Shown piece after piece: positions 14,615-62,296 of a stretch of 64,000 nucleotides of DNA. Origin of the DNA: an uncultured virus (IMG/VR IMGVR_UViG_2875455138_000005) (lineage: Duplodnaviria > Heunggongvirae > Uroviricota > Caudoviricetes); IMG/VR virus record IMGVR_UViG_2875455138_000005, positions 1-64,000 of that record; one strand, 5' to 3'. Numbering within the stretch: the stretch's first letter is position 1; the number at the start of each line of letters is the position of its first letter. A program made the translations under genes and the position numbers. A model generated the notes under the pieces. That model worked only from the letters and a program-made list of their open reading frames with translations, did no database searches and was not told the DNA's origin.

Positions 14615-14738
14615 TAAAATACGCACTTTTAGAATAAAAATAAAATTAGTATTGATTATTTAAAATGGTCATGCTATACTTAAATCAAGTTAAAACAACA
14701 GCGGAGCATGCATATTTCAAGGATGAAAATAAAATAAA

Positions 14739-15137
14739 ATGCATATTTTAAACAGAATGGAGAGAATTAATTTGGATAAAAGTCAATTAATAAAGGTTGG
14801 CTCAACAGTATATCTTAAACCAATCAATAATGCCGCACGATATGGAAGAAAAGATATTCTAGAGAAAGTTGTGTTAAAAAAGGGAAGGAAATATTTCTAT
14901 GTTGGAAATACGGGAGAGACAGAAACAAGACGCATGTTCAAATTTTCTTTGGAAGATATGAGAGAAGTGACAGAATATAGTCCTGACTGGGAGCTTTATT
15001 TATCAAAACAAGAGATTATTGATAAGGAAGAGAAGAAAAAGTTAATGTTTGATATACGATCGGTCTTTGATAGGTGGTCGACGGCTGATTTAACTCTGGA
15101 TCAATTAAGAAGGGTGCATGAAATTATTTCTGAATAA
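14739..15137 (+). CDS. Hypothetical phage protein (small beta-barrel-like)
   Basis: ORF; IKVGSTVYL...VLKKGRKYFYV pattern; true start may be downstream. Confidence 0.7.
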   Translation: MHILNRMERINLDKSQLIKVGSTVYLKPINNAARYGRKDILEKVVLKKGRKYFYVGNTGETETRRMFKFSLEDMREVTEYSPDWELYLSKQEIIDKEEKKKLMFDIRSVFDRWSTADLTLDQLRRVHEIISE

Positions 15138-15168
15138 AACAACAATTTTAAACATATAGGAGGGTGCT

Positions 15169-15594
15169 GTGATGAAAGAAGGAACAATCGATTTATGGGA
15201 TAGAAAAGACGGAAAAGTTAAAGTGATCATAACTGATTTATTGAAATTGCATCCGTACACAGGAAAAGGAAATAGATCGACTGTAAGTCTATTTGATTTT
15301 GACGGAAATTATAGATGCCGTATAGACCATATACAGAGTGATAAGAATCTAGTTGGAGATATACTCGAAGCGTTAGAGGTCGACGACAGATTCAAAAATT
15401 TCAAACTAGCATTCGATAAGGACATTAAAATGTACGAATTTTCGATAAATGAACATGGGAACATGCCGTATAGGTCATACAATACAAACAGTGTGACGGC
15501 AGTTATCAATACAACTTTCGATGCATTAATCAGTATGAGATACATGCCAAATAACGGAGGGTACGCAGTGACAAAAGATAACGAGAAATATTGA
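15169..15594 (+). CDS. Hypothetical protein
   Basis: ORF with GGAGGG RBS. Confidence 0.7.
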   Translation: MMKEGTIDLWDRKDGKVKVIITDLLKLHPYTGKGNRSTVSLFDFDGNYRCRIDHIQSDKNLVGDILEALEVDDRFKNFKLAFDKDIKMYEFSINEHGNMPYRSYNTNSVTAVINTTFDALISMRYMPNNGGYAVTKDNEKY

Positions 15595-15707
15595 GATTGG
15601 AACAATTTCAAGAACTGGTCAGGCTAAGGATATGAAAGACTTAGATTGTTCGGTCTTACATAGTATCGACAACATCTTTAAATATCATAAAATCAGATAG
15701 GACGGGC

Positions 15708-15890
15708 GTGTGTAGTTTGGATAGAGAGAAAATCAATGTCTATAAATCAGAAGAAAACGATTATTGCGATGGATGTGGACACAGAAGAATAAAGGGCGTA
15801 TACAGCGTATACGTGCCGTATGCAAGAAGTATTGTAAATGTATGTGATGATTGTAAAGAAAAGCTTGTGAATGCATTGAAATCGGAATAA
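15708..15890 (+). CDS. Small Zn-ribbon protein
   Basis: CDGC...CDDC. Confidence 0.55.
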   Translation: MCSLDREKINVYKSEENDYCDGCGHRRIKGVYSVYVPYARSIVNVCDDCKEKLVNALKSE

Positions 15891-15948
15891 AACAATATTT
15901 CACAGGGGCTTGTTAGCCAATACTAAAGCGAAGAGGTGAGAGAGCTCA

Positions 15949-16164
15949 ATGAATTTAAAAGTTGATGACAAAGTAAAGCCAATTAACAAGACTGCTGGAC
16001 ACCGTGATTTTGATAATAGTGCTACTCACTATTCGATGTTGGAAATAAAGCAAAACTTTTTATATGTAATCGGAGTCAATGAAGAAGAATCTAGAAAAGT
16101 TAAGGAAATTTGCTATTGGTGTGGGGTGTATCCAGGTGCACCGATGGATATAAAAAAAGATTGA
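15949..16164 (+). CDS. Hypothetical protein
   Basis: ORF with GAGGTG RBS. Confidence 0.6.
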   Translation: MNLKVDDKVKPINKTAGHRDFDNSATHYSMLEIKQNFLYVIGVNEEESRKVKEICYWCGVYPGAPMDIKKD

Positions 16165-17035: not shown

Positions 17036-17061
17036 CTAAAGAGAGGGGAAATACAATAGCC

Positions 17062-17226: not shown

Positions 17227-17253
17227 AGAAATAAAACATGTATTTAAAGAAAG

Positions 17254-17642: not shown

Positions 17643-17656
17643 AAAGGGGAGATAAA

Positions 17657-17767: not shown

Positions 17768-17898
17768 AACGTTAGTATTCCAAAGCCTATTTTAAATAAA
17801 AACACCATTTTAACTTGAATGTAATTAATAAATAGGCAGCCATTATTAATTTAGCTACACTAGCATAAGGTATCAAAATAATGGGGTGATGAGGACAA

Positions 17899-18326: not shown

Positions 18327-19421
18327 TTAACTTGCTTTTATTGTTTTATTGCTCAAATTGTTTTCACTGTTTTTGCGTAATTTTAATGCTGGCCTTTCAA
18401 CTAATCTATATGAAAGAAATGCGGATGCAGCAGTAACAGCAATTAGGGCTATGATCAGCGGGTAATCAGACAATGTTTTATTAATTCCAGTGTATAAGAA
18501 GATGTTGATAATCACCATGTGCCATATGAAAATCCCCATACTGATATCATCTAACCGGTTCAGCTGCCAAAATATCTTCGGCCCATTGTAACCGAACCAG
18601 ACGAGTGCATAGCTCAGGGGTACGAACCATAAAAAGCTCCATAGTGTACTGTTTATTGCGCTGAGATGTAAAAAGTCAATTTTAAAGAATAAAAATAAAA
18701 TTACTGAAGATAAGAATAAAACAATATGCCGCGGTGACTTGCTCCATGCTTTAGCCCAGAAGATGCCCAAAGTGAAATAAAACATCTGCGGCAGGAAAGA
18801 ATGTAAGTACAGGTTACCGAAGACACTGGCCGGCGCACACTTTAAAACTATGAAAGAAGCTAACACACTGAAGGCGGCAACAGCAAAAGAGCAAAGAATC
18901 ATTTTTTTGAATCCGAAACGTTTATAAAACCAATAAATAGCGGGTAACACCAGGTAAAAGCTAATTTGAACAGGAATTGTCCAAAGTGAATCGTTAAGGC
19001 GACCTGTGCCAATGTGATGAAATATGTCAGGGAAGTATTGAGGGTATAGCACAAGATTGCTCAGAAGCCATATCCAGTAATCTTTTGTAGTGAATACTGT
19101 TAATGAAAGAGCTCCTAGAACAATTAGCAGTACAGTGGAGGCAAGAGCATAGGTGTATATAGCAGGGGCAATTCTAATGATTCGGCTCCAATAAAAATCG
19201 GTTACATTATTTCCTTTAAGCCTGGATCTCTCATAAGAAGTGAAAAGAAAAAATGCACTTAGAAAAAAGAAGATTGATATGCCGGTGTGAAACGATGCTT
19301 TACTCTCTGGGGTATAACCAAAGACAGAAATGTTTAAATCTCTTGTAGCATGGCCAACCAACACACAAAGAGCAGCAAACAGCCTGATAACAAAGAAACA
19401 ATTAGAATGCTTTACGTTCAT
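18327..19421 (-). CDS. Acyltransferase family 3 (OafA-like) membrane O-acyltransferase
   Basis: R..AAL.V..GH, FFFLSAF, R..RI.P, SLWTI..Q..FY, S.GIFIWH, SYRLVERP motifs; about 10 TM helices. Confidence 0.88.
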   Translation of the reverse strand: MNVKHSNCFFVIRLFAALCVLVGHATRDLNISVFGYTPESKASFHTGISIFFFLSAFFLFTSYERSRLKGNNVTDFYWSRIIRIAPAIYTYALASTVLLIVLGALSLTVFTTKDYWIWLLSNLVLYPQYFPDIFHHIGTGRLNDSLWTIPVQISFYLVLPAIYWFYKRFGFKKMILCSFAVAAFSVLASFIVLKCAPASVFGNLYLHSFLPQMFYFTLGIFWAKAWSKSPRHIVLFLSSVILFLFFKIDFLHLSAINSTLWSFLWFVPLSYALVWFGYNGPKIFWQLNRLDDISMGIFIWHMVIINIFLYTGINKTLSDYPLIIALIAVTAASAFLSYRLVERPALKLRKNSENNLSNKTIKAS

Positions 19422-21750: not shown

Positions 21751-21787
21751 ATAAAATCGTACTTTCATAAAGAATAGGAGAAAAGAG

Positions 21788-22102: not shown

Positions 22103-22162
22103 TTGCGAGACACTTTGAGGAACAGTATAAAATTGCACTTTACAACAAAGGGAGTGATGAAA

Positions 22163-22857: not shown

Positions 22858-22968
22858 AACAATTAAGTTAAAATCATTCTTTTATGTGGAACTAAGACAA
22901 CTGTGGACGAAAAACAATCATCAGAACATGAAAAGGTGTTTAAAACGCAGATATGAAGGAGTGAATTA

Positions 22969-26217: not shown

Positions 26218-26401
26218 AATTACAATAATAAAAGACACAGTTGTGAAGAAAAATTGTGTCTTTATAAAATACGAATTTTAAACAGAGAAGGATTCCTTAA
26301 AAAATAATTAGAATAAAAATAAAATAAATACTTGTAATTCTGACAACTCTAATGTATATTATAAACAAGGGAACATTAGTTGGGAAGGGGTGGAGTAACC
26401 A

Positions 26402-27547
26402 ATGAACCTTAAGCAGATGATTAAGAATGAATGTGAAAAAGACAACCAGCTCGCAGCGAAACTCTCAAAAATAGCAGGGTACGAAAAGGTTAATGGCTTT
26501 TACAAATTCATCAACACCCCAGAGAAAGAAATGGACAACTTAGGCGGTTTAATTAATATTGTTAAAAGCTTGTTTCCTGATAATGAAAAGCAACTTTTGA
26601 GTGATTATTTCTTGTCATTGGATCCCAATAAGAAATGTGCTAGACAATCTGTTGAATATGCAGATTTAAATCAGTGGAATGCATTAACTGATAAAATAAT
26701 TTTAAATTTATGCAATTCAAAAAATGCGACAAGCAAAGAATGGGGTAAGACCTATAATATACATAGAAAGTTAACAGAAAACAAGATATCCTTAACTGAA
26801 GCAATCAGGGAAACTGGAAAATGCAAAACAGCAGAAATGATATTCTTCTCAAATGCAATGTTAATGTATGAATACCTTAAAATCGGTGAATTTGGATTAA
26901 TGAAAAGTACAGCAAAATTGCTGGATTTTCAAGAAATATCAGACGCTTACATAAAAGGCTTGTACACCTCCAGAGTAAGCTTGTTGAAAGCTAATATAAG
27001 CTTCAATGAGAACAATTTAATTGAAGCAAGAAAATATTGTTTATATGCCACTGAAACTACAAACGTGGACAGGATTTGTTTTTTTGCATATTTAACAATC
27101 GGAAATTCTTTTATATTCGAAAATTTTGAAGAGGCTAAGCGGTCTTATATTAATGGTGCTAAGTATGCAAGTAACACAATTCACAAAGAGATGTTAGAAG
27201 GAGCATTATGTTTTCTTGCAAGCTTTTGGGACAAAGAGAATTTTTGGGTGAATTATGAATCACAGAATACTAAATACTTGCAATTGAGGGCATACCATTA
27301 TATACGAAAAGGTGAAGTTGATAAAGCAAATGATATTTTAAATGAGTTATCAATAAGAGAACAAGATGAGAATGAGATGGGATTTTATTTTTATTATAGA
27401 GGTTTAATATCTGTAGATAAATCTGATTTTTATAAATCTATACGCTGTTTCAAAAAATCAGATGACAAATATTCAGTTCAACTGCCCTTGATTGAACTTA
27501 AAAAAATGGGCGCGGACATAGAACTGTTAAGTCTTATTTCAATTTAG
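26402..27547 (+). CDS. aimR: Arbitrium peptide receptor AimR
   Basis: MNLKQMIKNECEKDNQLAAKLSKIAGY N-terminal HTH plus TPR region; followed by an aimP-like gene. Confidence 0.95.
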   Translation: MNLKQMIKNECEKDNQLAAKLSKIAGYEKVNGFYKFINTPEKEMDNLGGLINIVKSLFPDNEKQLLSDYFLSLDPNKKCARQSVEYADLNQWNALTDKIILNLCNSKNATSKEWGKTYNIHRKLTENKISLTEAIRETGKCKTAEMIFFSNAMLMYEYLKIGEFGLMKSTAKLLDFQEISDAYIKGLYTSRVSLLKANISFNENNLIEARKYCLYATETTNVDRICFFAYLTIGNSFIFENFEEAKRSYINGAKYASNTIHKEMLEGALCFLASFWDKENFWVNYESQNTKYLQLRAYHYIRKGEVDKANDILNELSIREQDENEMGFYFYYRGLISVDKSDFYKSIRCFKKSDDKYSVQLPLIELKKMGADIELLSLISI

Positions 27548-28813: not shown

Positions 28814-29872
28814 ATGGAAGCTCAAAAGAAAGCGTCAACACTAAGGGATTATTCAATATACAACAACATAAATAGGTGGTTTGATGAATTAGATTTAAGA
28901 AACAGGGATCGAGAAACTGGAGAAATTGAAAAGTCTAATACTAGAGCCACGTATGAGAGGCATATAAGAGAGTTTTTCAACCACTATGCTGCCAAGGATA
29001 TTGAATATTTAACTGAGAGTGACCTGGCGATTAAGAAGAGTGACCTGTATGATTATCGAACCCATTTGGCTAAAAATAAAAGTAACTCCAATTCAACAAT
29101 TAACAATAAGATTGCCGCACTGAAAAGTATGATTAAGTACCTTGAATCTGAACATGAGTGTGATTCATCTGTATTTAATTTTAGACCTCTTCCAACAGAA
29201 AAGAACCCAGCAGGGTCTTTTGAAGGAATATCGGAAGCTGATGAGTTTGCTGAGGCAGCTTATGTTACTGAGCGTCAGAACAGATTAATGAAAAAGATGT
29301 TTATTTTGTTTAGTGCACGTACTGGTGGGCGTAAATCAGAGGTGCTTAGAGTTGGGTGGGATGATATTACTTATTCAGAAAAGCACCAATGCTATCTCGT
29401 CACCTTTAAAAAAACTAAGCAAAAAAAGGCTAGGCCAGTTGGGATTTCCACTGCTTTTTATGAAGAGTTGTTGCTGTTAAAGCAAGAGTATGGGGAACAT
29501 GAGCTTTTATTTCATAAGTTAACAGTTGATTCAATACAGGATATGTGGAATCGCGTATGTAGAGTTATGGGCATTCCCAAAGAAAGAAAGATAACTCCGC
29601 ATAGTTTACGCAATACTGCAACAAACTTTTCTTACAGCGTTAATGGTGATATTAAAAAAGTGGCAGCGTTCTCTGGCCACAGTAATATCAATACTTTAAA
29701 TGACCATTATTTAGTCAATGAAAGGGATTATTCTCAAGATCCAGGGGTTTTGGTTGATCAAAAAGAAGACATGTCCTTTTTAGAAGATGTTACTTTAGAG
29801 CAATATAAAGAATTCTTTTTAAAATCAGACATGTATATACAGAATAAACTTAAAATGTTTTTGAACAAGTGA
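28814..29872 (+). CDS. yopP: Tyrosine recombinase-family protein
   Basis: TGGRKSEV (R), KTK (K), HSLR, SGH and DHY catalytic residues. Confidence 0.85.
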   Translation: MEAQKKASTLRDYSIYNNINRWFDELDLRNRDRETGEIEKSNTRATYERHIREFFNHYAAKDIEYLTESDLAIKKSDLYDYRTHLAKNKSNSNSTINNKIAALKSMIKYLESEHECDSSVFNFRPLPTEKNPAGSFEGISEADEFAEAAYVTERQNRLMKKMFILFSARTGGRKSEVLRVGWDDITYSEKHQCYLVTFKKTKQKKARPVGISTAFYEELLLLKQEYGEHELLFHKLTVDSIQDMWNRVCRVMGIPKERKITPHSLRNTATNFSYSVNGDIKKVAAFSGHSNINTLNDHYLVNERDYSQDPGVLVDQKEDMSFLEDVTLEQYKEFFLKSDMYIQNKLKMFLNK

Positions 29873-29948: not shown

Positions 29949-31293
29949 GTGTCTGAAGTTTTGTTGACAACGGATAAACTTTATAAGTTAAAAACTGAAA
30001 TAGAGGAAAATCTTAATGATATTAAAAATGATCCCAATATGGTGAAGGAATTAAAAGCCACAATGGCGGACAAATACAAGGCACTCCCTGGTTATATCCA
30101 AGAAATTTTAAATAATAATGATAACAACGTACAACGTTTAAACGAAAAAGAAGTGTACATTGTTTCAAAAGAGATGTATTCAATTCTTGGGGCGCAAGCT
30201 TTAGATCCGTCAAATTATTTTCCAACCAGATTGGCAAAAGAGCTTGAAGGTGGGAGAGTATTCGCCGGTGAAGAAGTAGTTAAGCTTCCATACAAGTTTA
30301 AAAATGTGATTAAAATTAAAGAGGATAACTATGTCACTTCCATTACTGCCAAAGAACTGAGTGAGTTATATAATAGCTCCATCCTGCAGTACAATTACAA
30401 CATTCAGCGTGAAGGAAAGTACATTAAGGGTAGCCTTATTCCTGTACCTAAAACAAACCCTAAATCAGTTGATGAGATCAAAGAATTGTTTATTAAAGGC
30501 GATTTAATTGTATCAATGTTAACTTTTAACGCTCGTCTTGGAACATCTGATGGTGATGAAGAAGTTGAATATGATCCAAGCGACCAATCCCTCACTGTAA
30601 CACGAGGAACCTTATTAGATGCTCTTGATGGATATCATCGAATTTCAGGTATTGTTAAGGCCATTGCTGAAGTCCCTGAATTAGATCAACCATTCATTTT
30701 AAATGTGCTCAATTACGATGAAGAAAAGGCTAAGGTTCACTTTGCTCAAATGAATACCATAAACCCAGTTGAAAAATCCAGAATTGAAGAATTGGGACAA
30801 AAACGGTATTCTTCAACCGTTGTCGAGCAGCTGAAATTTAAAAGTGAACTTAAAAATAAGCCCACAAAGTGAAATTGGTATCGATAGCAATTTTCTTGTG
30901 ACATATTATACTTTATCAGAAGCTATAGACGATGCATTTGAGTTGAAATCTCGAAAAGATGCGTTGAAAATTGCGAAATACCTGGTAGACTTTTTCGATA
31001 ACCTTTTTTATGCCTTCCCAGATGAATTTCTTGAAGATGATTTATCGTCCATTAGAAAGCAATCATACATTAATCATAACGTAATGTTTTACGGTTATGT
31101 TTATTTGGCCAAGAAGATGAAGGAAAACAATGTAGAACTAAACAAGCTTGAAAATATCCTTAATACGATTGACTTTAGTAAAAGCGGAAGAGTGTTTGAA
31201 GAATTAGGAAGACAAAATAATGAAAATCAACTAAAGAATGTTATGAAGAAGAAACTTAAGCGAATATTTTATGATGAAATTGCTGTTGTTTAA
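29949..31293 (+). pseudogene. yopQ: yopQ-like (ParB/DndB-like domain) gene split by a frameshift near 30857
   Basis: DALDGYHR motif; two overlapping ORFs (29949-30872 and 30844-31293) together give about 450-460 aa; ...ELKNK|ISPQSE junction. Confidence 0.75.
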
Positions 31294-31313: not shown

Positions 31314-32297
31314 ATGAGTGAAATGTATAATGCTGAATTGAAGGAAAAGTTTTTAGAGAAATACGAAAGTGAAGCAACAAGAAACCATTATTGGCTAAGG
31401 CTAAGGGATTTCTCAGCTACAGAAAAAATACTTCAAAAAGACATATTTAATTTTTCTTTGGAAGAGCTGCGTACGTTATTTTTAGATTTAGATAGCAAAT
31501 CTATAGATTCACTAAGAGGAGCAAGAGCTGTAATTGGACAATACACAACCTGGGCAATGGAAAATGGCTTGGCAAACAGTAACATCAACAAAGTGTATCA
31601 GATACAGGATGGGGACTTAAAGCAGTTTATAGATAAAAACAAAAAAACACTATTCACCAATAAAGAAGTAGAAGAATATGTTGATTTTATGGTTAATGAT
31701 CAGGATAAAGCGATGATACAGGCTATTTATGAAGGCATAGATGGTTATCAGCATTCAGAGTTACTGAATTTAACAGGTGACGATTTACTTGATGATAACA
31801 AGGTAAAGCTTGTAGATGATAAACACGGTGTAAGAATAATTACTGTAAGCGACAAATGTTATGAGTTGCTTAAGCGCGCTAATGATCAAACAACATATCA
31901 TCTTAGCAATGGTTCGCCAGAGAGTGGACTTAAAAACAAATTTGCTACATTAGTTAAAAGCGAAAATATTTTTAGGTTAAAATATAAGAGTTCTAATCAG
32001 AGTATGAAAGCTGACAAATTTTTAATTCACCGTTCTTTTAGTCAGTTTCAAAAATTTTTAGAAGAACCCTTCTTTTCACCTAAGAATCTTATCAACTCAG
32101 GAAAGCTCAACATGGCGTATGAGATATACAAAGAGAAGGGTGAATTAAAAGTACCTGATTATAAGAAAATAACTCGACAATATGGATTCCTGAATGAAGA
32201 CGCGGAGTTTAATTCACAATCACTGAGGAAAGTAGTGAATATGGAGAACTTAGAAAAATATTGTATCAAGTCTGAAGTAATTGAGACTAATTCTTAA
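31314..32297 (+). CDS. yopR: Master repressor MrpR/SroF (recombinase fold)
   Basis: [11 protein letters not shown]..., [18 protein letters not shown]; 327 aa; synteny. Confidence 0.88.
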
Positions 32298-33632: not shown

Positions 33633-33857
33633 TTGATTAATGAACAAATTAACGATCAAATAAGAACTATGGTTTTAAGGAAATATGAAAAGCTCTTAGC
33701 ATCATGCGAAAGATCTTTGCGCAGCATAGAGAATAATGAAATCAGAATGGCAATAGGAGACCTGGACTTTGTTAAAGACAATTTAGAGGAAATACAATAC
33801 ATACTTCGTGATGTTGTGAATCAGCATGAATATATTAAGGATAAAAATAAAATGTAA
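33633..33857 (+). CDS. Hypothetical protein
   Basis: AAGGAG RBS; upstream TTTACA...TATAAT promoter. Confidence 0.6.
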   Translation: MINEQINDQIRTMVLRKYEKLLASCERSLRSIENNEIRMAIGDLDFVKDNLEEIQYILRDVVNQHEYIKDKNKM

Positions 33858-33889
33858 GTTTTATAGAGATTAAGATAAGGGGGAATAAC

Positions 33890-34171
33890 ATGGGTGCATT
33901 AATCGCTAAGCAACCGAATGGACGGTACTGCCGATTTAGTTCAGTGGTAGACTGCCCAACGCACATAAATATGACGCGTGAAGACTATTTAAATAATTTT
34001 ACTGGGACAACAAAAGGAAGGGAAGATGCTGAAGATACACTTGCAAATTATCTCCGGCCGTTTCACGAAGTTATAAAGTGGTACACACCGCTGAACATGA
34101 GCGAAAAAGAGTTTGTGGAGGCGTTAAAAGAAATGTGTGACGAAAACCCAAAGGAGGCGCGGGAATTGTGA
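33890..34171 (+). CDS. Hypothetical phage protein
   Basis: MGALIAKQPNGRYCRFSSVVDCPTH; RBS. Confidence 0.7.
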   Translation: MGALIAKQPNGRYCRFSSVVDCPTHINMTREDYLNNFTGTTKGREDAEDTLANYLRPFHEVIKWYTPLNMSEKEFVEALKEMCDENPKEAREL

Positions 34172-34365
34172 AAGTGAAGCGTATTGAATATAAGCTGTGG
34201 TACGAAGTTAGGTTCGGATGGACGCATTTCAGTTTCGGCGCTAATGATGATAAATCTGCATTGAAATATGCAGAGGAATACGCAAAAAATAACTACCTCA
34301 TAAATTATAAAGTGGAAAAAATAACGAATGAGAGATTGTTTTGGACTGAGGAGGGTGCGGAGTGA
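34168..34365 (+). CDS. Hypothetical protein
   Basis: Translationally coupled ORF. Confidence 0.6.
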   Translation: MKVKRIEYKLWYEVRFGWTHFSFGANDDKSALKYAEEYAKNNYLINYKVEKITNERLFWTEEGAE

Positions 34366-34559
34366 TTAGAGCAACAGAAAAACAGTTGAGACTGATCGGA
34401 CGCATGGAGCAATACATTAGTGCAAGATTCACCGGTAATACAATTAGAGAAGCAAGTGAGTTTATTACTAATCATATGGATGAATACCAAGAAGAGAGAG
34501 AAATGGCCGATGAATCAAAAGTTTTATATGATGATATTTTCTATGAAGAAGGTTGGTAA
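34362..34559 (+). CDS. Hypothetical protein
   Basis: ATEKQ...TIREASEFI small-domain pattern; coupled ORF. Confidence 0.6.
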   Translation: MIRATEKQLRLIGRMEQYISARFTGNTIREASEFITNHMDEYQEEREMADESKVLYDDIFYEEGW

Positions 34560-34627
34560 CCTTGCCGAGAAGTATTGAGATCTATATAAAAGATGCATTT
34601 TAAATAGAAAATAAGGCGGTTTAATAA

Positions 34628-35953: not shown

Positions 35954-36045
35954 GGGTTGGGAAGACTTAAAAGTTGTATTGGCAGCGGGAGAACATAGGG
36001 AATTGGATTAAAAGTAAAACTTTATTTAGATATTAAGGAGTAAAC

Positions 36046-37003: not shown

Positions 37004-37133
37004 GATTAAAAAAAGAATCTAATTGAAGTTTTAAAGAAAAGAATGACTTCGGAGTCGGCAGACGCTATATTAAAATTAAGTGATTAAGGGGTAATAAACA
37101 CAAAACTTTTGAAGTTTAGCAGGGGGCATAGCG

Positions 37134-37721: not shown

Positions 37722-37876
37722 TAGTGAATCTTGGTTTGGCTGTTTCAATTGTAAATAAGAAGGAAAGAAATTATTAATTGAGCCTACAGAATCACAATAA
37801 AAAGACTGTTTTAAAGAAAGGGTGAGAACCGATAGTCAATTTCAAAAAACTTAGTGATCCTGAATATATTAAGCAG

Positions 37877-39856: not shown

Positions 39857-39941
39857 TATTTTACCCAAAAGTGAACGCATGACAGCAAGAAAAAGGTTTA
39901 GTCTAAATGAAATCGTGATTTTAAACAGATAGGAGGAAACG

Positions 39942-40211
39942 ATGAATCAAGATATTCAGTTTTTAAAAGAACTTCAGCAAGAGTTGAAAAATCAAGACAA
40001 CGACGGTCAAGCTGCACCACGTTTCTGGACAGTTGGTGATTATGAATGGGTCGAAGCTCGAGAGGAAAATGCAGAACGGTATTCTGTATACCTGCCATAT
40101 ATTGCAGAAGCTCATACTTACGCAATGACAGCTTGGAGGGCACCGAAAGTAGAGCGGCTGCTTAAAATTCTCGAAACGTTTGATTGGAGTTCAATAACGA
40201 TATCTAAATAA
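39942..40211 (+). CDS. Hypothetical phage protein
   Basis: AGGAGG RBS; FLKELQQELKNQDNDGQAAPRFW. Confidence 0.65.
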   Translation: MNQDIQFLKELQQELKNQDNDGQAAPRFWTVGDYEWVEAREENAERYSVYLPYIAEAHTYAMTAWRAPKVERLLKILETFDWSSITISK

Positions 40212-40290
40212 AAGATAGTTTTCAACTAAACATATAAGGATGGATCGTTATCGAAATTATAAAAATCCGATAACGATCGCAGAAGGGGTG

Positions 40291-41416: not shown

Positions 41417-41581
41417 TCAAGAACGAACGAGAAGATTATTTAAGCAGGCTTGCTGAATACGGATTAACAGAAGAAGAGGAAGAGGAAATGGCCAATATTT
41501 TAAATGATTTTGTGGGCTATGATATTTGGTGATCATATTAGAATCAAAATAAAATAGTTATTTTATAGAAAGAGGGGAAGA

Positions 41582-42069: not shown

Positions 42070-42882
42070 TTAGACTCTCCAGGATTCAAAGGAAGGTATG
42101 CGGAGTTTGCCATGCTTAGTCTTAAATCTGTGTTTAACCTTACATAATATCGGTTCTACAAATATATATTCATCAGATTCAGACTTTATATGTTTCATAG
42201 AGTGGAACTTACTTCGTTCTGCTTTCGGCATGAATTCCATAAATCCAGCTGCAGTACCATCAGGATAAGAGAGAAGGAACTTTATATCCTCTTTGGTGTA
42301 GCCTGTGATAAGCACATCTGTGTAATCATAGTTAATCACTTTCAGCCAGCTATGGGAACGTTTATTGATTTCATAAGGGGAGTTAGCTTTCTTTAGTACG
42401 ATTCCTTCAAGACTCTTTTCTTTGGCTAGATTAAAGTAAGCTAATCCGTTTCCTTGCAGGCCTTCAATAACAAAGACATTATTATGATCAAGCTTAAGGT
42501 CTAAAAGGACGTTTTTACGTTCAGTGAGCGGCTTATTAGCGATTGAATGCCCATCAATATAAATTACATCGAATACACAGTAAACCACCTTATGGGCTGA
42601 TTTCTTAGACATAAAGCGTTCCATCACAGCTTCGAAATCTGGAGCGCCTCCTGGGGTAGCAACAATGATTTCACCATCTATAACAGTTCCGTTGGGGATA
42701 TCGAGATCCAACAGTTCTGGGAACTTGCTTGTTACTTCATTGTTGTGACGAGTGTAAAGCTTTATCTGATCATTAAACTTGGAGAGGATCAGTCTAATTC
42801 CATCAAACTTCAGCTCGGTAATATAACCATCGTCATCAAATGGCTCTTTGATTGAATGCAATAACATTGGCGATACAAACAA
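42070..42882 (-). CDS. ligB: ATP-dependent DNA ligase
   Basis: ELKFDG, IDGEI, VFDV, EGIVLK, WLK ligase motifs; 270 aa. Confidence 0.93.
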   Translation of the reverse strand: MFVSPMLLHSIKEPFDDDGYITELKFDGIRLILSKFNDQIKLYTRHNNEVTSKFPELLDLDIPNGTVIDGEIIVATPGGAPDFEAVMERFMSKKSAHKVVYCVFDVIYIDGHSIANKPLTERKNVLLDLKLDHNNVFVIEGLQGNGLAYFNLAKEKSLEGIVLKKANSPYEINKRSHSWLKVINYDYTDVLITGYTKEDIKFLLSYPDGTAAGFMEFMPKAERSKFHSMKHIKSESDEYIFVEPILCKVKHRFKTKHGKLRIPSFESWRV

Positions 42883-43918: not shown

Positions 43919-44244
43919 TGTTTCTGAATTTATTGAGAGATGCACGGATATTAAGAAGAGAACTTTTCCTTGGAGCTTTAGCGTTAGTAGGTATGAACTT
44001 GTTCGTATATTTTCTATTTGGTGGTTTAACTGCCATAGACAATCAGAGGATAATAACACGAAGAATTGGAATGTTTGTTGTAAGCATTGGAATACCATGT
44101 TCTTTTATTCTAAAGTACTTGATCGTTTGGAGACCGTTAATCCGTAAGGTAATGGAAGAGTTAAAGGAAGAAGATCAGAATGAACGTACACTCAAGAAAT
44201 ATGAATTTCTAAGAAAGAAATTTGATAAAACAGAGATTTTATAA
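43915..44244 (+). CDS. Two-TM membrane protein
   Basis: Two hydrophobic segments. Confidence 0.6.
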
Positions 44245-44275: not shown

Positions 44276-44728
44276 ATGAGGGAAATTAAGTTTCGAGGAA
44301 TGGGCATCAATGAAGAATGGTATTACGGTAATCTATCAATCATTAAGCAAAGAATCAAGAGCATGGGTATTGATCCTGGTTCTTATATCTCTAATAAAGC
44401 TGGGGTTCCATTTGCTTACAGTGTCAGGCCGGAAACAGTTGGGCAATATACTGGATTAAAAGATAAAAATGGTCTAGAGATTTACGAAGGAGACATTTTA
44501 GAAAAAACTTCTGAGTTATACACCAATTTTGGGAAAACACCTACAGGAAAGTTCCATACTTCATACATTAAAGTGATTTGGATTGACGATTGTTGGGGAT
44601 ATGAGGTTATCGAAAATAACGGTAAAGGCCCAATCATTGGGCATAAATGGAAAGGGTTAAAGGTGACTGCAAGATATTCAGTAGTGTACGGCAATATTTA
44701 TGAAACTCCTGAGCTAGAGTCTAAATAA
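44276..44728 (+). CDS. YopX-family protein
   Basis: MREIKFRG...GQYTGLKDKNGLEIYEGDIL...GNIYE. Confidence 0.88.
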   Translation: MREIKFRGMGINEEWYYGNLSIIKQRIKSMGIDPGSYISNKAGVPFAYSVRPETVGQYTGLKDKNGLEIYEGDILEKTSELYTNFGKTPTGKFHTSYIKVIWIDDCWGYEVIENNGKGPIIGHKWKGLKVTARYSVVYGNIYETPELESK

Positions 44729-44784
44729 AAACGATATTTTATAGAGGAATGGAGTGAAGCAATATAGATAGAACAAATCGTACT

Positions 44785-45051: not shown

Positions 45052-45240
45052 TAAAAGGAGGTGATTGAGATGTAATTTATTTCAGCTATCTGAAGTTTAT
45101 AAGAATAAAAATAAAAGGAGGTGATTGAGATGTAATTTATTTCAGCTATCTGAAGTTTATAAGAATAAAAATAAAAGGAGGTGATTGAGATGTAATTTAT
45201 TTCAGCTATCTGAAGTTTATAAGAATAAAAATAAAAGGAG
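45052..45240 (+). repeat. Perfect 60-bp tandem repeat, about 3.1 copies
   Basis: Sequence lines 45061, 45121 and 45181 are identical. Confidence 0.97.
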
Positions 45241-47812: not shown

Positions 47813-47850
47813 ATAAAATTGTAGTTTTAACAAGATTGGGAGATGGATAT

Positions 47851-48299: not shown

Positions 48300-48950
48300 G
48301 TGTCAAAATCATATGTTCTATGGGGCTTCATTGTACTATTATTAGCTTGTTTTTCATTTTTATCAGATGTAATAACTGTAACAGGTTATAATTTCATCTA
48401 TTGGTTTCAGAATCAAATTCCTGAATCGGTAGTGATCATAGTATTGTTTTTTATTATTATTGGTTTAATTTATTGGGTTAAATCTATTTATAGGCAAAAC
48501 AACAAACTAAAAAGCAAAGCAAAAGAACTTGAAAACAAAGTTTTAGAACTTGAGGCAGAAAGATTGAGCAAGGCTGATAAAAGTTTGCTAGAAGAATTTT
48601 TACAAACGTTTAATGACAAATTATATAATTTTACTGAGATGTTAGTTCAGACTCGACAATTATCATTTAACCAAATGCAGAACTTGGAAAATGATGCCGT
48701 TCTTTTTGGATATCCTCATAAAAAGTTTGAAAACGAACGACTTGAGACCGCTAAAAGAATCCTTTTGGATAGACTGAACTCTTTTCTTGATTTTTATTCT
48801 ACACATACTATAAGCACTACTGCTCCAACAATCGTTAGATTTAAGCCAAAAACAGAAAAAGACGAAAAGGATTATCAAACAAAGCTAAAAGAGTTCTATG
48901 AGAGTTGGGAAACATTTATGAAAGTTGTTGGAAATGAAACACGTAAGTAG
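48300..48950 (+). CDS. Two-TM protein with coiled coil and C-terminal soluble domain
   Basis: Two N-terminal hydrophobic helices; GGAGGGG RBS. Confidence 0.65.
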   Translation: MSKSYVLWGFIVLLLACFSFLSDVITVTGYNFIYWFQNQIPESVVIIVLFFIIIGLIYWVKSIYRQNNKLKSKAKELENKVLELEAERLSKADKSLLEEFLQTFNDKLYNFTEMLVQTRQLSFNQMQNLENDAVLFGYPHKKFENERLETAKRILLDRLNSFLDFYSTHTISTTAPTIVRFKPKTEKDEKDYQTKLKEFYESWETFMKVVGNETRK

Positions 48951-51715: not shown

Positions 51716-52831
51716 ATGGCAAGAAAATTTGGTAAAAAGAATAAAATTAAAGTTAATCCTCTCGATTATAACACTGGAATTATTGGTGAATCGGGGATCG
51801 GTAAAACAACTCTAGCTAAAGAAGTTTGCGAAAAATTAGTCGGAGAAGACGGGTATATAATCTTGAATATTGGTAAAGAGGATGGTATTGATGCCATCCC
51901 CAATGCCTCTTATGAAGATGTTCCTGATTGGACAACCTTTGATGAAATTACTAAAGATATTATTAAAAACAGAACAACAGATTATGCTGATTTAAAGGTT
52001 TTAGTATATGACACATTTGATGAGTTGATTAAAATTACAGAACCAGAAGTTATTAGACTACACAATAAAGCAAATCCTGAAAAAAGAGTGAATACCATTA
52101 AAGCAGCATTCGGTGGTTTCCAGGCAGGAGAAGACAAGGTAATTGAGTTAATTCTTGAAAAGATGTGGAAACTTAAAAAGGTCGGTATTAGCATGTTTAT
52201 TTTAGGTCATACGAAGAAAAGAACAATGACAGACGTAGTTACTGGTTTGGAATATGACATGCTGACAACCAATATGACACATAAATACTTCAATGCGATT
52301 AAAACCAAGCTCCACGTCTTGGGAGTAGCATCTATTAATCGGTCAATTGAAAAGAAAACAGTAAAACAAAAAATTGGGCCTGACAAAACAGTGGGAACAG
52401 TTGTTGATGAATCAAGAATCATCACTTTTAGAGATGATAACTTTAATATTGATTCAAAGTCAAGATTCTCAGATATCACACCATCAATTCCATTAGATCC
52501 GAATGAATTTATTAAAGCAATTGAACAAGCTATCCATGTGGCTTTTGATAAACAAAAAAATAACACAAATAACATTGAAGAAGAAAGAAAAGAACAAGAG
52601 CAAATTAAAGAAATTCAAATTCACAACGAAGTTAACAACTCATCTTTTATTGATAAAGAAGAGAATGAGAGATTGGCAGAAGAGATTAAGACACTATTCC
52701 CTAATGCAACTGACGAAGCTAAGGGGGAAATGAAGAAAATTATGGATCAATTTAATATGAAAGATTTTAAAGGGGTAGACATTGTACCAACTACAGCATT
52801 CGAAAAGATAGTCGAAGCATTATCTAACTGA
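51716..52831 (+). CDS. AAA_24/Sak4-like ATPase (YorG-like)
   Basis: GESGIGKTT Walker A, VYDT, ILGH; position. Confidence 0.75.
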   Translation: MARKFGKKNKIKVNPLDYNTGIIGESGIGKTTLAKEVCEKLVGEDGYIILNIGKEDGIDAIPNASYEDVPDWTTFDEITKDIIKNRTTDYADLKVLVYDTFDELIKITEPEVIRLHNKANPEKRVNTIKAAFGGFQAGEDKVIELILEKMWKLKKVGISMFILGHTKKRTMTDVVTGLEYDMLTTNMTHKYFNAIKTKLHVLGVASINRSIEKKTVKQKIGPDKTVGTVVDESRIITFRDDNFNIDSKSRFSDITPSIPLDPNEFIKAIEQAIHVAFDKQKNNTNNIEEERKEQEQIKEIQIHNEVNNSSFIDKEENERLAEEIKTLFPNATDEAKGEMKKIMDQFNMKDFKGVDIVPTTAFEKIVEALSN

Positions 52832-58761: not shown

Positions 58762-59483
58762 TATGCATCGCCATTGAGAGTAAAAATAAAATTAAAACAC
58801 ACATTTTCAAGTCTGTTTATGGTATGATGATTTTAATTCCCTTAACCACTTTTTCTTACATAAGTTATGAGCAACATTTACATAAAACCGAGGGAAATGA
58901 AGACTCAATAAAAGAATCATTTTATAAGAAGCCTAGACAGATTAGGATCCCATCAAGTGAGAATATTGTCTTGCGGTTATTTAAAAAAGCTCAAACGAAC
59001 AAAGAACAACAATTAAAAAAGCATACAGAGAAGATTATCTCAGCAAAACTCATTAAACCTAAGCAAAGTAAGAAAAGGCACATGAGAGGAGGTGAAAAGG
59101 CAAAGCATAGAGTTTTTAAGAGTAAAAATAAAATATACAAACAAAGAAAAGAAAACAAGGCACCGGCCGCAAAGAAATCTATCCAGGTTAAGCTGAGTGC
59201 TTATATTGCACACTGCCAAGAAGGATGCACAGGAACAACTAGAACAGGTGTTGATGTTACTCAATCAATCTATTACAAAGGGTATCGTGTTATTGCAACC
59301 GATCCAAGTGTCATTCCCTTGAATTCAATTGTTGAAATAAGCATTGGCGGGGAAACGTTCAAAGCAATTGCAATTGATACTGGTGGCGCAATCGTTGGAA
59401 ATAAAGTGGACTTGCTCGTAGCAACCGAGCGTGACGCAATTAATTTTGGCAAGCAAAATGGGACAATCTCAATTATTAGTTAG
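58758..59483 (+). CDS. yorM: 3D-domain (MltA-like) protein
   Basis: IATDPSVIPL, AIDTGGAI, KVDL; N-terminal TM. Confidence 0.85.
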   Translation: MICIAIESKNKIKTHIFKSVYGMMILIPLTTFSYISYEQHLHKTEGNEDSIKESFYKKPRQIRIPSSENIVLRLFKKAQTNKEQQLKKHTEKIISAKLIKPKQSKKRHMRGGEKAKHRVFKSKNKIYKQRKENKAPAAKKSIQVKLSAYIAHCQEGCTGTTRTGVDVTQSIYYKGYRVIATDPSVIPLNSIVEISIGGETFKAIAIDTGGAIVGNKVDLLVATERDAINFGKQNGTISIIS

Positions 59484-59660: not shown

Positions 59661-60154
59661 CGATGATAATTTTAGAAGGAACTGACTGCTGCTACAAATC
59701 AACAGTGGCAGATAAGCTTAGCAAAGAACTTGGATATCCGGTCATAAAGGGATCCAGCTTTGAATTAGCTAAGAGCGGTAATGAGAAGCTGTTTGAACAC
59801 TTCAACAAACTGGCCGATGAGGACAATGTAATTATTGATCGATACATATATTCAAATTTGGTTTATGCGAGAAAGTTCAAGGATTACTCAATCTTAACGG
59901 AAGATCAGCAAAGGGAGATTGAGGAGAAGATTAGATATAAAGCAAAAGTGGTTTATTTACATGCTGATCCGAAAGTTATTAAGCAGCGTTTACTTGAACG
60001 TGGTGATGAATACATAAATGATCGAGACATTGAGCCGGTCTTAGAGTTATACCGAGAAGTAATGAGCGATGTAGGATTACATACATATTCGTGGGATACA
60101 GAACAATGGAATAGTGATGAGATCGTAGAAGGTTTGATTCAATTATTTGAGTAA
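59657..60154 (+). CDS. yorR: Thymidylate kinase-like nucleotide kinase
   Basis: LEGTDCCYKST P-loop, IDR..YS..VY; 165 aa. Confidence 0.85.
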   Translation: MTMIILEGTDCCYKSTVADKLSKELGYPVIKGSSFELAKSGNEKLFEHFNKLADEDNVIIDRYIYSNLVYARKFKDYSILTEDQQREIEEKIRYKAKVVYLHADPKVIKQRLLERGDEYINDRDIEPVLELYREVMSDVGLHTYSWDTEQWNSDEIVEGLIQLFE

Positions 60155-60192
60155 AAAATTGAGAGAAGGAGTGAATTAACACTCCTCAGTAA

Positions 60193-60540
60193 CTAACGTG
60201 CTTCTACTGTAATTTTAAAAATTACATAATTGTCGTTAATGTCATACGCGTAAACCAATGCTGTGCCCAATGTTGAATGAGAGGATACAACACCACTGGA
60301 ACTAATGCTAATAAGGTTGCTTCCAGAAACAATTTCCCACCGGGTGTAACCTTTTAATAGAGATACGTTAGAATTCCTAAGCATGTGGTAATCAACTGTA
60401 CCGAGCGGATCGCCTAGCTGCTTAACTTGGTCAACTGATTTGACAGGTGTTAGGGCTGAAGCTTGTGATGTGAATGCAGGGAGAGCTAGTGTTGTAAGCG
60501 ATAGAGCAGAAACAATCAAGCCTTTGTAAAACTTTTTCAT
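60193..60540 (-). CDS. Secreted protein with small Ig-like domain
   Basis: Signal peptide ending ASA; W...SGS.LISISSSGVV....GTA.V pattern. Confidence 0.65.
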   Translation of the reverse strand: MKKFYKGLIVSALSLTTLALPAFTSQASALTPVKSVDQVKQLGDPLGTVDYHMLRNSNVSLLKGYTRWEIVSGSNLISISSSGVVSSHSTLGTALVYAYDINDNYVIFKITVEAR

Positions 60541-60680
60541 AAGAATTACCTCCTAGGTTTTGATTGTGATTACAACTTCAGTCTAGCATGTTAAATATTT
60601 GAAATGTGTGAAGTGTTTGTGAAACTGTTTAAAAGATCAATTTTATTTAGAGTAAAAATAAAGTAAATGGAGGTTATTTA

Positions 60681-60863
60681 TTGGGGTGTCTTTGTGAAAA
60701 TAAATATTTGATTTGGAAAGGGGATGATTTTTTGCAGGATGACAATAGAGTACAAACAATCTGGGTATGTTCAAAATGCAAAGAATCATTTGTATATATA
60801 AAATCAATTGGCTGCCATAAGCCTCTACCTTGCTTTAAAATGGAGGTGAAGGGTGCTGATTAA
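60681..60863 (+). CDS. Small Cys-rich protein
   Basis: CLC, CSKC; GGAGG RBS; overlaps the next gene. Confidence 0.55.
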   Translation: MGCLCENKYLIWKGDDFLQDDNRVQTIWVCSKCKESFVYIKSIGCHKPLPCFKMEVKGAD

Positions 60864-62247
60864 CTTGGATATAACATATAAAACAACTATTGATAATCCA
60901 TCAAAACGGGTTCTTGAAATATCAGATGCATTTGGAGTTGGAATAAATGAATCACATAAACACGTTATTATAGAGAACTTAACAATTCCAGAGTTTCAAA
61001 TCATGTATTTAACTGGAATGAGTGGTAGCGGAAAAACTAGTATGCTTAATTATTTTAAAGAGGAGTATTCTTTTACTGAACCGGATATTGAATTTGATTC
61101 TGAAAAGCCTATTATTGATACTATAGGTAAGGATACTGAAAATGCTCTTTTCCTTTTGAATTTGGTGGGCCTAGGTGAAGCATTTCTATATATAAAACCT
61201 TACAAAGTCCTTTCAGACGGACAGAAATATAGATATAAAATTGCTAAAATTATTGAAAGCGGACAAAAGGTTTGGTGTATTGATGAGTTCTGTAGTTTTT
61301 TAGACAGAACAACCGCAAAGATCGTTGCTTTTAACACACAAAAAATTGCAAGAAAGCTTGGGGTTAAACTAATTGTTGCAACAGCTCATGACGATCTTAA
61401 AAATTACATTCAAGCTGATTATGTGTTTGACTTTGGAATGGGGGAAGGATTAGAAATAACAAGAAATACAAAAGAGGTTATAAACCCTTTTGTTGATGAA
61501 CTTGAGATAACCCCAGGCACCATTGAAGATTATAAAAAGCTTGGGAAATATCATTACAAAAATAAAGATGCTCGCTTTACTAAATACATATTTAAGATGA
61601 TGTATAAAAGGATACTTGTTGGAGTTGCAGTTTATTCAATGCCCCGACAGCAATTGGTTGGAAGAAACGTTTTCTTCAATAAAAAATATGTAAACGAACG
61701 TGGGATTCCAAAACTAAGCGAAGTTAACAAAGACTTTTTGATGGGGTCAAGATTCATCATACACCCTATGTTCAGGGGCGTAGGGTTAGGTTCTGAACTT
61801 GTAAGGAAAACTGCACCTCAGGTTGACAGACCTTATATTGAGATTGTATCAACTATGAGTAAGTACAATAAGTTTTTAGAACAAGCAGGGGCTCATTATG
61901 TATGTGACAATCTAAATGAAGATAAAATCAAAAAGCAAGAAAAGATTATTAAACTTTTTGAAAAATACAACCTTAATTATGAACTTATTTCATCTATTGA
62001 CTACTGTCAGAAGGTTTTAGATACTGTACCAGTTGAAGAATTGAAAAATGCAATATATGGGGTTCTAAGACCTAATTTCTTTAACAATAGGGCAAGGTTT
62101 AAGAAATATGGGATTGATTTTCAAACCAAGAAAGAGTTTATGGAGCCTGATTTTCCTTTAACTCCAGAAATTTTAAGCTTGGCAAAATGGCCAACAACTA
62201 CATATTACATATGGGACAATACAAAAATTGAGAGCTCTCAGAAGTGA
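60853..62247 (+). CDS. ABC ATPase-GNAT acetyltransferase fusion
   Basis: GMSGSGKT, LSDGQ, IDEF, VATAH; then SRFIIHPMFRGVGLG acetyl-CoA motif. Confidence 0.85.
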   Translation: MLINLDITYKTTIDNPSKRVLEISDAFGVGINESHKHVIIENLTIPEFQIMYLTGMSGSGKTSMLNYFKEEYSFTEPDIEFDSEKPIIDTIGKDTENALFLLNLVGLGEAFLYIKPYKVLSDGQKYRYKIAKIIESGQKVWCIDEFCSFLDRTTAKIVAFNTQKIARKLGVKLIVATAHDDLKNYIQADYVFDFGMGEGLEITRNTKEVINPFVDELEITPGTIEDYKKLGKYHYKNKDARFTKYIFKMMYKRILVGVAVYSMPRQQLVGRNVFFNKKYVNERGIPKLSEVNKDFLMGSRFIIHPMFRGVGLGSELVRKTAPQVDRPYIEIVSTMSKYNKFLEQAGAHYVCDNLNEDKIKKQEKIIKLFEKYNLNYELISSIDYCQKVLDTVPVEELKNAIYGVLRPNFFNNRARFKKYGIDFQTKKEFMEPDFPLTPEILSLAKWPTTTYYIWDNTKIESSQK

Positions 62248-62296
62248 GACTCTCAATAAAATTTGTCTTTTAAAGAGTAAAAATAAAATATAAGAG

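Follow-up and report, generated by a model that had tools for sequence, protein, structure and literature searches.

What are the short palindromes for that recur between the accessory genes of SPbeta-like phages? SPbeta serves as a model of temperate phages, and gene-by-gene differences from its relatives are found in the early arm, the home of the accessory genes. The question is raised here by the first 64 kb of an 87,243-base virus record (IMG/VR IMGVR_UViG_2875455138_000005), hereafter the window, in which an earlier note had pointed out copies of the dyad TAAAA-N6-TTT(T/C)A at gene junctions and proposed an integron-like cassette system. The window belongs to an SPbeta-like Bacillus phage that is only a distant relative of SPbeta by DNA; in the phage collection, at most 18% of its 40-60 kb part is covered, at approximately 85-88% identity. 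The TAAAA-N6-TTT(T/C)A sites are real, found across the family and confined to its phages. They act as DNA, and they are points at which homology between relatives switches while the order of the sites remains fixed. As such, they look like built-in gene exchange points of the SPbeta-family phages. A search of the literature on SPbeta, which did not extend to Brady et al. 2023 (Cell Host Microbe) and Lazarevic et al. 1999, found no description of the dyad.

Enrichment, anatomy and spread of the dyad

The window contains 39 strand matches to TAAAA-N6-TTT(T/C)A at 22 places, compared with 3.87 +/- 2.44 in 100 dinucleotide shuffles, none of which reached 39. In the non-coding DNA alone (77 segments, 8,705 bases, 69% A+T), 15 sites are present where 0.49 +/- 0.68 are expected, and none of 2000 resamplings reached 15, so that the shuffle comparison proposed in the earlier note gives a clear enrichment. 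Both the spacing and the arms are specific. When the spacer of TAAAA-Nk-TTTTA is varied from 0 to 15, 17 copies are obtained with k = 6 and 0-4 with any other length, and among all 1024 pentamers tried as arms, TAAAA ranks first with 17 copies, followed by a runner-up with 4. Seventeen of the 22 sites are intergenic, one overlaps the final codons of a gene, and four are located within open reading frames (ORFs). The whole 87-kb contig has 33 sites, the first of which is encountered only at 14.7 kb. The next start codon usually follows a site after 16-36 nt, and the Shine-Dalgarno sequence is found at a variable distance of 0 to about 25 nt.

A position frequency matrix of 18 junction copies reveals further symmetry outside the arms, as TCT at positions -6 to -4 is mirrored by AGA at +19 to +21. 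The resulting consensus is TCTAAATAAAA-N6-TTTTAWANAGA. Owing to this outer symmetry, the full dyad comprises 28 bp, in which two 11-bp halves flank a 6-bp centre (11+6+11) and the outer TCT/AGA triplets are weaker than the 5-bp arms. The first base of the centre leans towards T and the last towards A. Inverted arms around an overlap region of 6-8 bp are the generic geometry of tyrosine-recombinase core sites, which is found in the dyad; the earlier note had recognised this in the 5-bp arms and the 6-bp core, and the 11+6+11 arrangement fits such a core site as well.

SPbeta itself carries 34 exact sites, compared with 2 for a reversed control. Of these sites, 27 are situated in the early arm and seven in the late/lysogeny half; gene junctions account for 29 of them. 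The dyads are not annotated in the SPbeta record, which has no feature at their coordinates. The record does include features termed 'palindrome', and their identity with the dyads was considered and rejected, as they are other sequences.

Exact sites are also abundant in relatives, with a density of 3-14 per 20 kb in most of the related IMG/VR loci. Around the ligase gene, 46 of 49 IMG/VR loci have 4-13 exact sites, and the three loci with 0-1 sites encode a ligase that is just 55-58% identical. Around homologues of YopP, the Xer-like tyrosine recombinase of the window, 61 of 73 loci have 3-14 exact sites and the remaining 12 have 0-2. A search of assembled genome contigs returned just two loci. 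In a Bacillus rugosus genome the motif occurs 72 times, compared with 40 in the control. The excess consists of a dense run with family centres on the contig bearing the YopP locus, and 31 of the 50 sites listed fall outside this contig; the host chromosome is not enriched in the motif. Since the excess is confined to the YopP-locus contig, a host protein with chromosomal sites of its own is unlikely. A 133-kb, phage-sized contig titled Streptomyces sp. (L161) encodes a YopP that is 98% identical to that of the window, and its title is probably due to contamination or to a mislabelled Bacillus phage.

Position-specific centres, fixed order and mosaic boundaries

The centre differs between the sites of one genome and is common to the same position, or slot, in related phages. 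In the ligase set, 17 centres occur in at least 8 of 47 sequences. Not one of their 129 co-occurring pairs is found in both orders, and 45 of the 47 slot strings are distinct. The independent YopP set comprises 25 centres; none of their 240 pairs occurs in both orders, and of its 61 slot strings 57 are distinct. No centre is duplicated within a sequence among 494 sites. The DNA between two slots varies considerably in length: slots A and B are 739 to 3,147 bp apart, and 38 loci have 35 different values. When flanks of 200 bp were clustered for 517 sites, a single centre was found in 38 of 57 right and 41 of 55 left flank clusters. The remaining clusters contain point variants of the centre, or the centres of neighbouring or nearby slots. 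Conversely, the same centre adjoins 7-14 different flank clusters. Judged by these sequence comparisons, the centre behaves as an address of its position.

The pattern is one of in-register replacement with occasional loss or gain of a cassette, and not one of free mobility as in integrons or dif modules. Single genes are indeed bracketed by two sites, as the earlier note had seen. Its term 'integron-like' does not hold, given the fixed order (0 of 129 and 0 of 240 pairs) and the lack of a stable attC-like hairpin, and the different centres of bracketing sites argue against the simple excision of cassette circles that it had envisaged.

How the sites relate to the mosaicism of these phages can be seen from the ends of local alignments. 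The 30-55 kb part of the window was compared with 46 related loci, yielding 675 internal ends of high-scoring segment pairs (HSPs). HSP starts cluster at -10 to +2 and HSP ends at +15 to +24 relative to the site start. These pile-ups on both sides indicate that the site belongs to both adjoining homology blocks. At least five HSP ends were found at 11 of 11 motif junctions and at 12 of 25 motif-free junctions (p = 0.0026); with a threshold of at least one, the counts are 11 of 11 and 17 of 25 (p = 0.076). The motif is therefore sufficient for a mosaic boundary and not necessary, as the 12 mosaic junctions among the 25 motif-free ones show that mosaicism does not require it.

The flank clusters add to this picture. 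Identical 16-mers, with the centre included, are found beside many unrelated left and right flanks in free combination. In 1,234 context pairs that share the 16-mer and have unrelated flanks on both sides, the identical tract has a median length of 19 bp (quartiles 18-21). An unbiased scan of all 16-mers occurring in at least 8 loci yielded 15 distinct dyads with at least three flank types on each side, which dominate the top of the list. Furthermore, cassette indels between relatives end exactly at the sites and run from site to site. Joins were seen between the left flank typical of slot D and the centre of E, between the centre of slot L and the right flank typical of M, and between the left flank typical of slot G and the centre of I; in each of these joins the intervening cassette or cassettes and sites are lost. 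Between SPbeta and phi3Ts, four of six identical-tract boundaries abut a dyad. The earlier proposal that the sites are points of gene gain, loss and shuffling is borne out by the HSP-end pile-ups, the recombined flanks and the exact indels. The alignment of relatives that it suggested as a check gave indels ending exactly at the arms and boundaries that are not independent of the motif (11 of 11 versus 12 of 25).

Within the window, the dyads at 14735-14750 (centre TGCATA), 60630-60645 (GATCAA) and 62257-62272 (TTTGTC) are present as identical 16-mers in SPbeta. Centres shared with the 61 YopP loci are found at 17797-17812 (ACACCA, in 9 loci), 21752-21767 (TCGTAC, with a TTTCA arm, in 37 loci) and 22869-22884 (TCATTC, in 27 loci). 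Slot A is located at 33848-33863 (TGTAAG) and slot B at 34587-34602 (GATGCA), the latter being known from 44 loci and 27 flank contexts. Slots C and D are represented by imperfect copies that keep the centre, namely a one-mismatch copy at 36009-36024 (right arm CTTTA, centre GTAAAA) and a decayed copy at 37018-37033 (left arm TCTAA, centre TTGAAG). Slot E at 37798-37813 (AGACTG) occurs in 41 loci and 29 flank contexts, with no variant seen. It is followed by slots F at 38785-38800 (GGATTA, TTTCA arm), G at 39908-39923 (TCGTGA, TGAAA arm), H at 40209-40224 (GATAGT, TTTCA arm) and I at 41550-41565 (TAGTTA). Slot K at 44226-44241 (CAGAGA) covers the last codons of the upstream gene, and slots L and N are found at 44726-44741 (ACGATA) and 47814-47829 (TTGTAG), respectively. 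At 15135-15150 (CAACAA), at slot H and at slot L, the gene upstream has the motif's TAA as its stop codon; at slot L, this gene belongs to the YopX family. A one-mismatch copy at 17232-17247 (right arm TTTAA) lies between a stop codon and the next ribosome-binding site (RBS), and the copy at 22128 has two mismatches. The in-ORF matches are probably due to chance; they are located at 18669-18684 in a minus-strand acyltransferase ORF, at 42502-42517 in the DNA ligase ORF, at 48530-48545 inside an ORF, and at 58909-58924 in an ORF of the replication block.

With regard to this inventory, the earlier note was accurate for all of its 17 exact copies and for the three sites at which the motif supplies the stop codon (15135, 40209 and 44726). 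Of the four copies that it described as having a single mismatch, those at 17232, 36009 and 39908 do so and that at 22128 has two. It placed nearly all sites between a stop codon and an RBS; 17 of the 22 are intergenic, and it overlooked the four deep in ORFs. One of these, the exact and probably fortuitous copy at 58909, falls within the replication block that had been regarded as free of sites.

Mode of action, candidate proteins and rival explanations

Several results show the form in which the dyad acts. When the 33 sites are forced into a 5-bp hairpin, the mean free energy is +1.5 kcal/mol as RNA and +0.85 kcal/mol as DNA. At the mirror positions 2 and 15, 140 of 221 distinct sites have no variant, 72 have one and nine have both, where 9.2 doubles are expected. 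Single variants of the A.C type and of the G.U type are both common on the coding strand. The arm variants are thus independent, in the manner of two protein half-sites and contrary to base pairing. The SPbeta sites that precede aimR and yorE are located between an annotated terminator stem-loop and the SPBRE/promoter; being upstream of the promoter, they are outside the downstream mRNA. In the window, the dyad at 26265-26280 (centre TACGAA), just after a 9-bp inverted repeat, lies 121 nt upstream of aimR (26402-27547, assigned by Pfam) and before a promoter-like site. The dyad acts as double-stranded DNA and not as a hairpin. An attC-like single-stranded fold was not found among the 33 sites, nor was covariation among the 221 distinct ones. 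Likewise, the dyad does not combine a strong sigma-70 promoter and a terminator stem-loop in one element, as promoter-early stem-loops (PeSLs) do, since it is without a stable stem and is positioned 16-36 nt from the start codon.

A known regulatory element of SPbeta had to be considered as well. Chromatin affinity purification with sequencing (ChAP-seq) of the master repressor MrpR in SPbeta gave ten peaks, all at SPBRE promoters according to the available part of PMC10516654. For comparison, an SPBRE sequence was derived here from seven SPbeta promoter regions named in that part of the report. Identity of the dyad with SPBRE, the 15-bp motif bound by MrpR, was rejected, as the derived sequence differs and shares no arms with it, and MrpR was ruled out as the dyad binder by the restriction of its reported SPbeta peaks to SPBRE. 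No SPBRE-like sequence was found in the whole 87-kb contig, despite its MrpR/SroF homologue, which is 32% identical to that of SPbeta. This absence fits the phage-specific motifs of SroF proteins, which read different motifs in different phages as far as the accessible text of 10.1101/2025.11.27.690993 describes them. A promoter of the phage RNA polymerase YonO was rejected too, since the available part of PMC5467207 has YonO start the late operon at a single site upstream of yonK.

A second repeat, (A/G)TAAAAATAAAAT, has 33 matches in the window with at most one mismatch, compared with 2.4 expected, and is nearly always on the coding strand. Examples are found at 5845, 10975, 11054, 14634, 26313, 28060, 38943, 43890, 49003 and 49441, and three copies are spaced 60 bp apart at 45105-45237. 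The copy at 49003 is directly upstream of a TTGACC -35-like hexamer, which is the position of SPBRE in SPbeta. This repeat may be the SroF/MrpR operator of this lineage or an UP-like element.

The Pfam scan also identified the sro/yop module, with YopP at 28814-29872, YopQ at 29949-31293 and MrpR/YopR at 31314-32297. The YopP/SroD homologue (plus strand) is a candidate binder or catalyst at the dyads and the only tyrosine recombinase found in the window. It matches the catalytic domain PF00589 (E 1.9e-14) and the SAM-like core-binding domain PF02899 (E 4.1e-6). Its predicted fold (mean pLDDT 77) matches Tn1549 Int, XerA/XerH, Cre and lambda Int with TM scores of approximately 0.5-0.6, and IntI (2a3v) is ranked at 49. 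A phmmer search against PDB sequences gave no match at the default threshold and weak Xer matches at E up to 10. The catalytic R-E-K-H-R-H/W-Y set is complete in the window protein (R173, E176, K202, H263, R266, H289 and Y299). R173, K202, H263, H289 and Y299 are conserved without exception in 10 homologues, the most distant of which is 28% identical, and the tyrosine is one residue further from the histidine than in XerD. Five of five further site-bearing proviruses encode a YopP homologue.

YopQ/SroE, a DndB/ParB-like protein on the plus strand, is an alternative candidate binder. In the window it is represented by two overlapping ORFs, 29949-30872 (307 aa) and 30844-31293 (149 aa), which jointly match the single 460-aa YopQ of SPbeta at residues 12-299 and 318-435; the gene is either genuinely split or frameshifted, or the sequence contains an error. 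The portion of 10.1101/2025.11.27.690993 at hand describes SroE as a second repressor of unclear mechanism. MrpR/YopR/SroF (plus strand) has a dead recombinase fold and is the master repressor in SPbeta, as stated in the available text of PMC10516654. According to the accessible parts of 10.1101/2021.11.22.469490 and PMC10516654, yopP, yopQ and yopR belong to the core genes of the family and are active during lysogeny. The phage furthermore carries, by Pfam, an AAA_24 gene (51716-52831, plus strand) and a PD-(D/E)XK nuclease gene. The AAA_24 protein, whose Pfam family is the Sak4-like group of phage annealing recombinases, is a candidate for passive exchange through short homology.

In the mechanism proposed, the constant arms would most simply be read by two identical protein subunits. 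Related genomes would meet in one cell, either by co-infection or when a phage meets a prophage. A crossover within a site of the same address would yield a genome with its left part from one parent and its right part from the other. A cassette would be replaced, with the gene order kept, by two crossovers at successive sites, and rarer joins between neighbouring sites would lead to the loss or gain of one cassette along with one site. The Xer-like recombinase YopP/SroD would be the preferred candidate enzyme, with the differing centres keeping the exchange in register. Such protein-guided, targeted exchange at addressed sites, in which a symmetric protein would bind the arms, is tentatively preferred, with a confidence that falls somewhat short of even. 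A fully natural form of recombinase-mediated cassette exchange, in which 30-40 heterospecific sites would be recombined by a phage tyrosine recombinase (YopP/SroD or another) exclusively between same addresses, is a more doubtful proposition and on the whole rather unlikely. Passive exchange at a regulatory site is almost as likely as targeted exchange.

A number of observations weigh against an enzyme dedicated to addressed sites. Some flanks counted as different types belong to diverged alleles of a single gene family, as do the YopX-type ends at the ACGATA site, so that the counts of flank types are upper bounds. Arm variants are mixed within left and right flank clusters and do not segregate cleanly with either. 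The best linker in the unbiased scan is an overlapping stop/start junction of approximately 34 bp that contains no dyad and connects 13 x 15 flank types. As it reassorts at least as much as the dyads, passive exchange at a short conserved sequence clearly happens in the SPbeta family. In the hybrids obtained in the laboratory from phi3Ts and SPbeta (Hyb1-3), crossovers map to intervals of 1.4-18 kb of identity or, once, to a dyad-free interval of 40 bp. The YopP protein of SPbeta has a lysine in place of the second catalytic arginine and an alanine in place of the glutamate after the first, and YopP alleles that are only 33% identical (window versus SPbeta type) occur with the same arms and the same centres. 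In one provirus (G005, the provirus of L042), the YopP homologue at 60594-61582 is split in two by a TAG stop, and its ligase locus still has 12 exact dyads in 20.8 kb. Brady et al. 2023 reportedly describe SroD as an auxiliary repressor.

The constraint on the centre is of the same kind. It was assessed with orthology defined by the flanks only, in 535 distinct junction-site pairs with a mean identity of 89%. The mismatch rate is 0.087 in the centre versus 0.10-0.11 in the flanks, with 0.046 and 0.081 in the two arms and 0.11-0.16 in the 12 nt adjoining the site on each side. The centre is identical in 408 of the 535 pairs, where about 42-51% would be expected from the mismatch rates. The in-ORF chance copies decay much faster, with a mismatch rate of 0.30 in the centre; junction and ORF copies were profiled apart, because these chance copies swamp a mixed profile. 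The centre is thus constrained, but only about two-fold. Moreover, reassortment was seen between identical 16-mers, a picture that homologous recombination also gives, and a few joins exist between neighbouring slots with different centres.

The ~34-bp linker is a GGAGG-containing stretch ending in GTGA, present at 34140-34200 and 34335-34395 of the window and at 1784-1822 of locus L003. It is situated between small genes, the products of which terminate in an NPELLE-like motif.

The strongest rival holds that the dyads are primarily stoperator- or KorB-like operators for a protein of the sro module, silencing or timing the early operons, and that relaxed homologous recombination makes passive use of them, as no other sequence is conserved at many junctions. 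YopQ/SroE, YopP/SroD or another conserved phage protein would bind the operator, and the AAA_24, Sak4-like protein together with the PD-(D/E)XK nuclease, the genes of which are present, would recombine the dyads as short, PeSL-like linkers. This explanation is a serious possibility, a little less probable than targeted exchange. It is in keeping with some 30 sites per genome, nearly all of them shortly before an RBS and most of them in the early arm transcribed by the host RNA polymerase, and many copies in short intergenic gaps are a trait of stoperator arrays, for which the available text of PMC9283540 provides a precedent across mycobacteriophage genomes. The core status and lysogeny activity of yopP, yopQ and yopR, the reported repressor role of SroE, the reassortment at the dyad-free junction, the modest conservation of the centre and the long homology used in the laboratory hybrids all speak for it too. 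However, the centres follow position and not the neighbouring gene, of which 7-14 flank clusters give the measure, and this is unexpected for gene-specific regulation. Islands of identity with a median of 19 bp reassort about as widely as the ~34-bp linker, which is more than would be expected if recombination depended steeply on homology length, and some sites are preceded by a terminator and followed by the next promoter. The reported confinement of the MrpR peaks to SPBRE removes MrpR and leaves other binders.

The further rivals fare less well. An RNA element in the 5' leader, either a hairpin or a protein-binding signal for processing, stability or translation, would account for the many copies between a stop codon and a Shine-Dalgarno sequence, 16-36 nt before the start, and a gene for a ProQ-C-like protein adjoins the first site; this is nevertheless very unlikely in view of the positive hairpin energies, the lack of compensatory covariation, a Shine-Dalgarno spacing that varies from 0 to about 25 nt, the aimR and yorE sites upstream of the promoter in SPbeta, and outer triplets whose symmetry is expected for duplex DNA. 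Freely mobile cassettes of the integron or dif-module type, which would be excised as circles and reinserted elsewhere, are less probable still. Single genes between two sites, the precise presence or absence of one cassette with one site and the dif-like 28-bp layout agree with them, yet the order is strictly fixed and the bracketing centres differ, no centre is duplicated among 494 sites although circle insertion would duplicate it, and neither an attC-like fold nor an enrichment in the host chromosome is seen. That the motif is a functionless by-product of AT-rich intergenic composition could be argued from the 69% A+T of the non-coding DNA and the probable chance copies in ORFs. This idea is refuted by the 15 sites versus 0.49 expected, the enrichment of the N6 spacing alone and the 34 sites of SPbeta versus 2 in the reversed control, and its probability is negligible.

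Besides the genes discussed above, the Pfam scan of the window identified an HU-like YonN, a YonO-like RNA polymerase, a ligase, SRAP and YopX proteins, and a replication block at approximately 49-59 kb. The YonO-like polymerase is apparently interrupted (1801-5608, minus strand): the ORFs 3731-5608 (RdRP-like, 625 aa) and 1801-2424 surround a GIY-YIG/NUMOD3 homing-endonuclease ORF at 2646-3548, which suggests an intron- or intein-like insertion. At 6363-7759, a GTPase of the tubulin/FtsZ family (370 aa) is preceded by a small winged-helix-like protein, the two resembling a TubZ/TubR or PhuZ pair. In the part of the SPbeta record that was covered (60-110 kb), nothing of this kind is annotated. 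The only gene between the first two dyads (14739-15137) encodes a Phage_ProQ_C-like protein with an RNA-chaperone-like domain.

Comparison with known systems

A chain of addressed sites in fixed order would explain how accessory genes can be reshuffled freely while gene order is kept. One parallel to such a chain is an engineered one. Heterospecific lox and FRT sites have common arms and differing centres, recombine only with sites of the same centre and allow in-register replacement between two sites. They have 13-bp arms and 8-bp spacers, and their enzymes are known. The dyads, on the other hand, are natural, and both an enzyme and the matching of centres are inferred from comparative data. 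If the cassette-exchange reading is true, the variable centre would be an address code rather than a spacer, and accessory genes, including anti-defence genes, would be traded in register between phages and prophages without deletions. Gad1 is annotated in the SPbetaL4 record, in the stretch that matches the early arm. Enzyme-targeted exchange would constitute a new natural use of site-specific recombination and could also supply a ready tool for the in-register engineering of large Bacillus phages.

Among natural sites, dif has the same geometry, with 28 bp that consist of two 11-bp arms around a 6-bp centre. The Xer/dif (pdif) modules of Acinetobacter plasmids resemble the dyads in that many copies flank accessory genes. 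Unlike the dyads, which are locked in position, confined to phages and accompanied by the phage's own Xer-like gene, they are mobile between plasmids and use the host XerC/XerD, as the available part of PMC6449649 describes. The Bacillus counterparts of these host enzymes are CodV and RipX. The varied contexts and orientations of dif modules are not seen among the dyads, whose order is fixed and whose flank clusters keep their own centre or that of a neighbouring slot. Integron attC sites are likewise imperfect inverted repeats bordering single-gene cassettes. They operate as a folded single strand with IntI and permit changes of cassette order, neither of which is true of the dyads.

Other comparisons are with regulatory elements. 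SPBRE is repeated in the SPbeta family like the dyad, and its binder has a tyrosine-recombinase fold and is encoded beside YopP. In contrast to the dyad, it is confined to about ten promoters and specific to the SroF of each phage (PMC10516654 and 10.1101/2025.11.27.690993, in the parts available). The stoperators of cluster A mycobacteriophages share with the dyads their dozens of copies in small intergenic gaps of a temperate phage. According to the accessible text of PMC9283540, however, they are asymmetric, are bound by a monomeric immunity repressor and stop elongation, whereas the dyads are symmetric, have position-specific centres and mark mosaic boundaries.

The PeSLs of T4-type phages (Arbiol et al. 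2010, PMC2839356; Comeau et al. 2014, PMC4122927), as described in the available portions of these reports, are short conserved intergenic elements between non-essential genes at which indels and replacements end, and in this they resemble the dyads. They differ in being composites of promoter and terminator that exchange by homology from copy to copy and give rise to mini-circles, whereas the dyad has no stable stem, has its own centre at each position and keeps a fixed order. If exchange at the dyads is passive, they would provide a clean case of a regulatory site that shapes phage mosaicism, comparable to the PeSLs.

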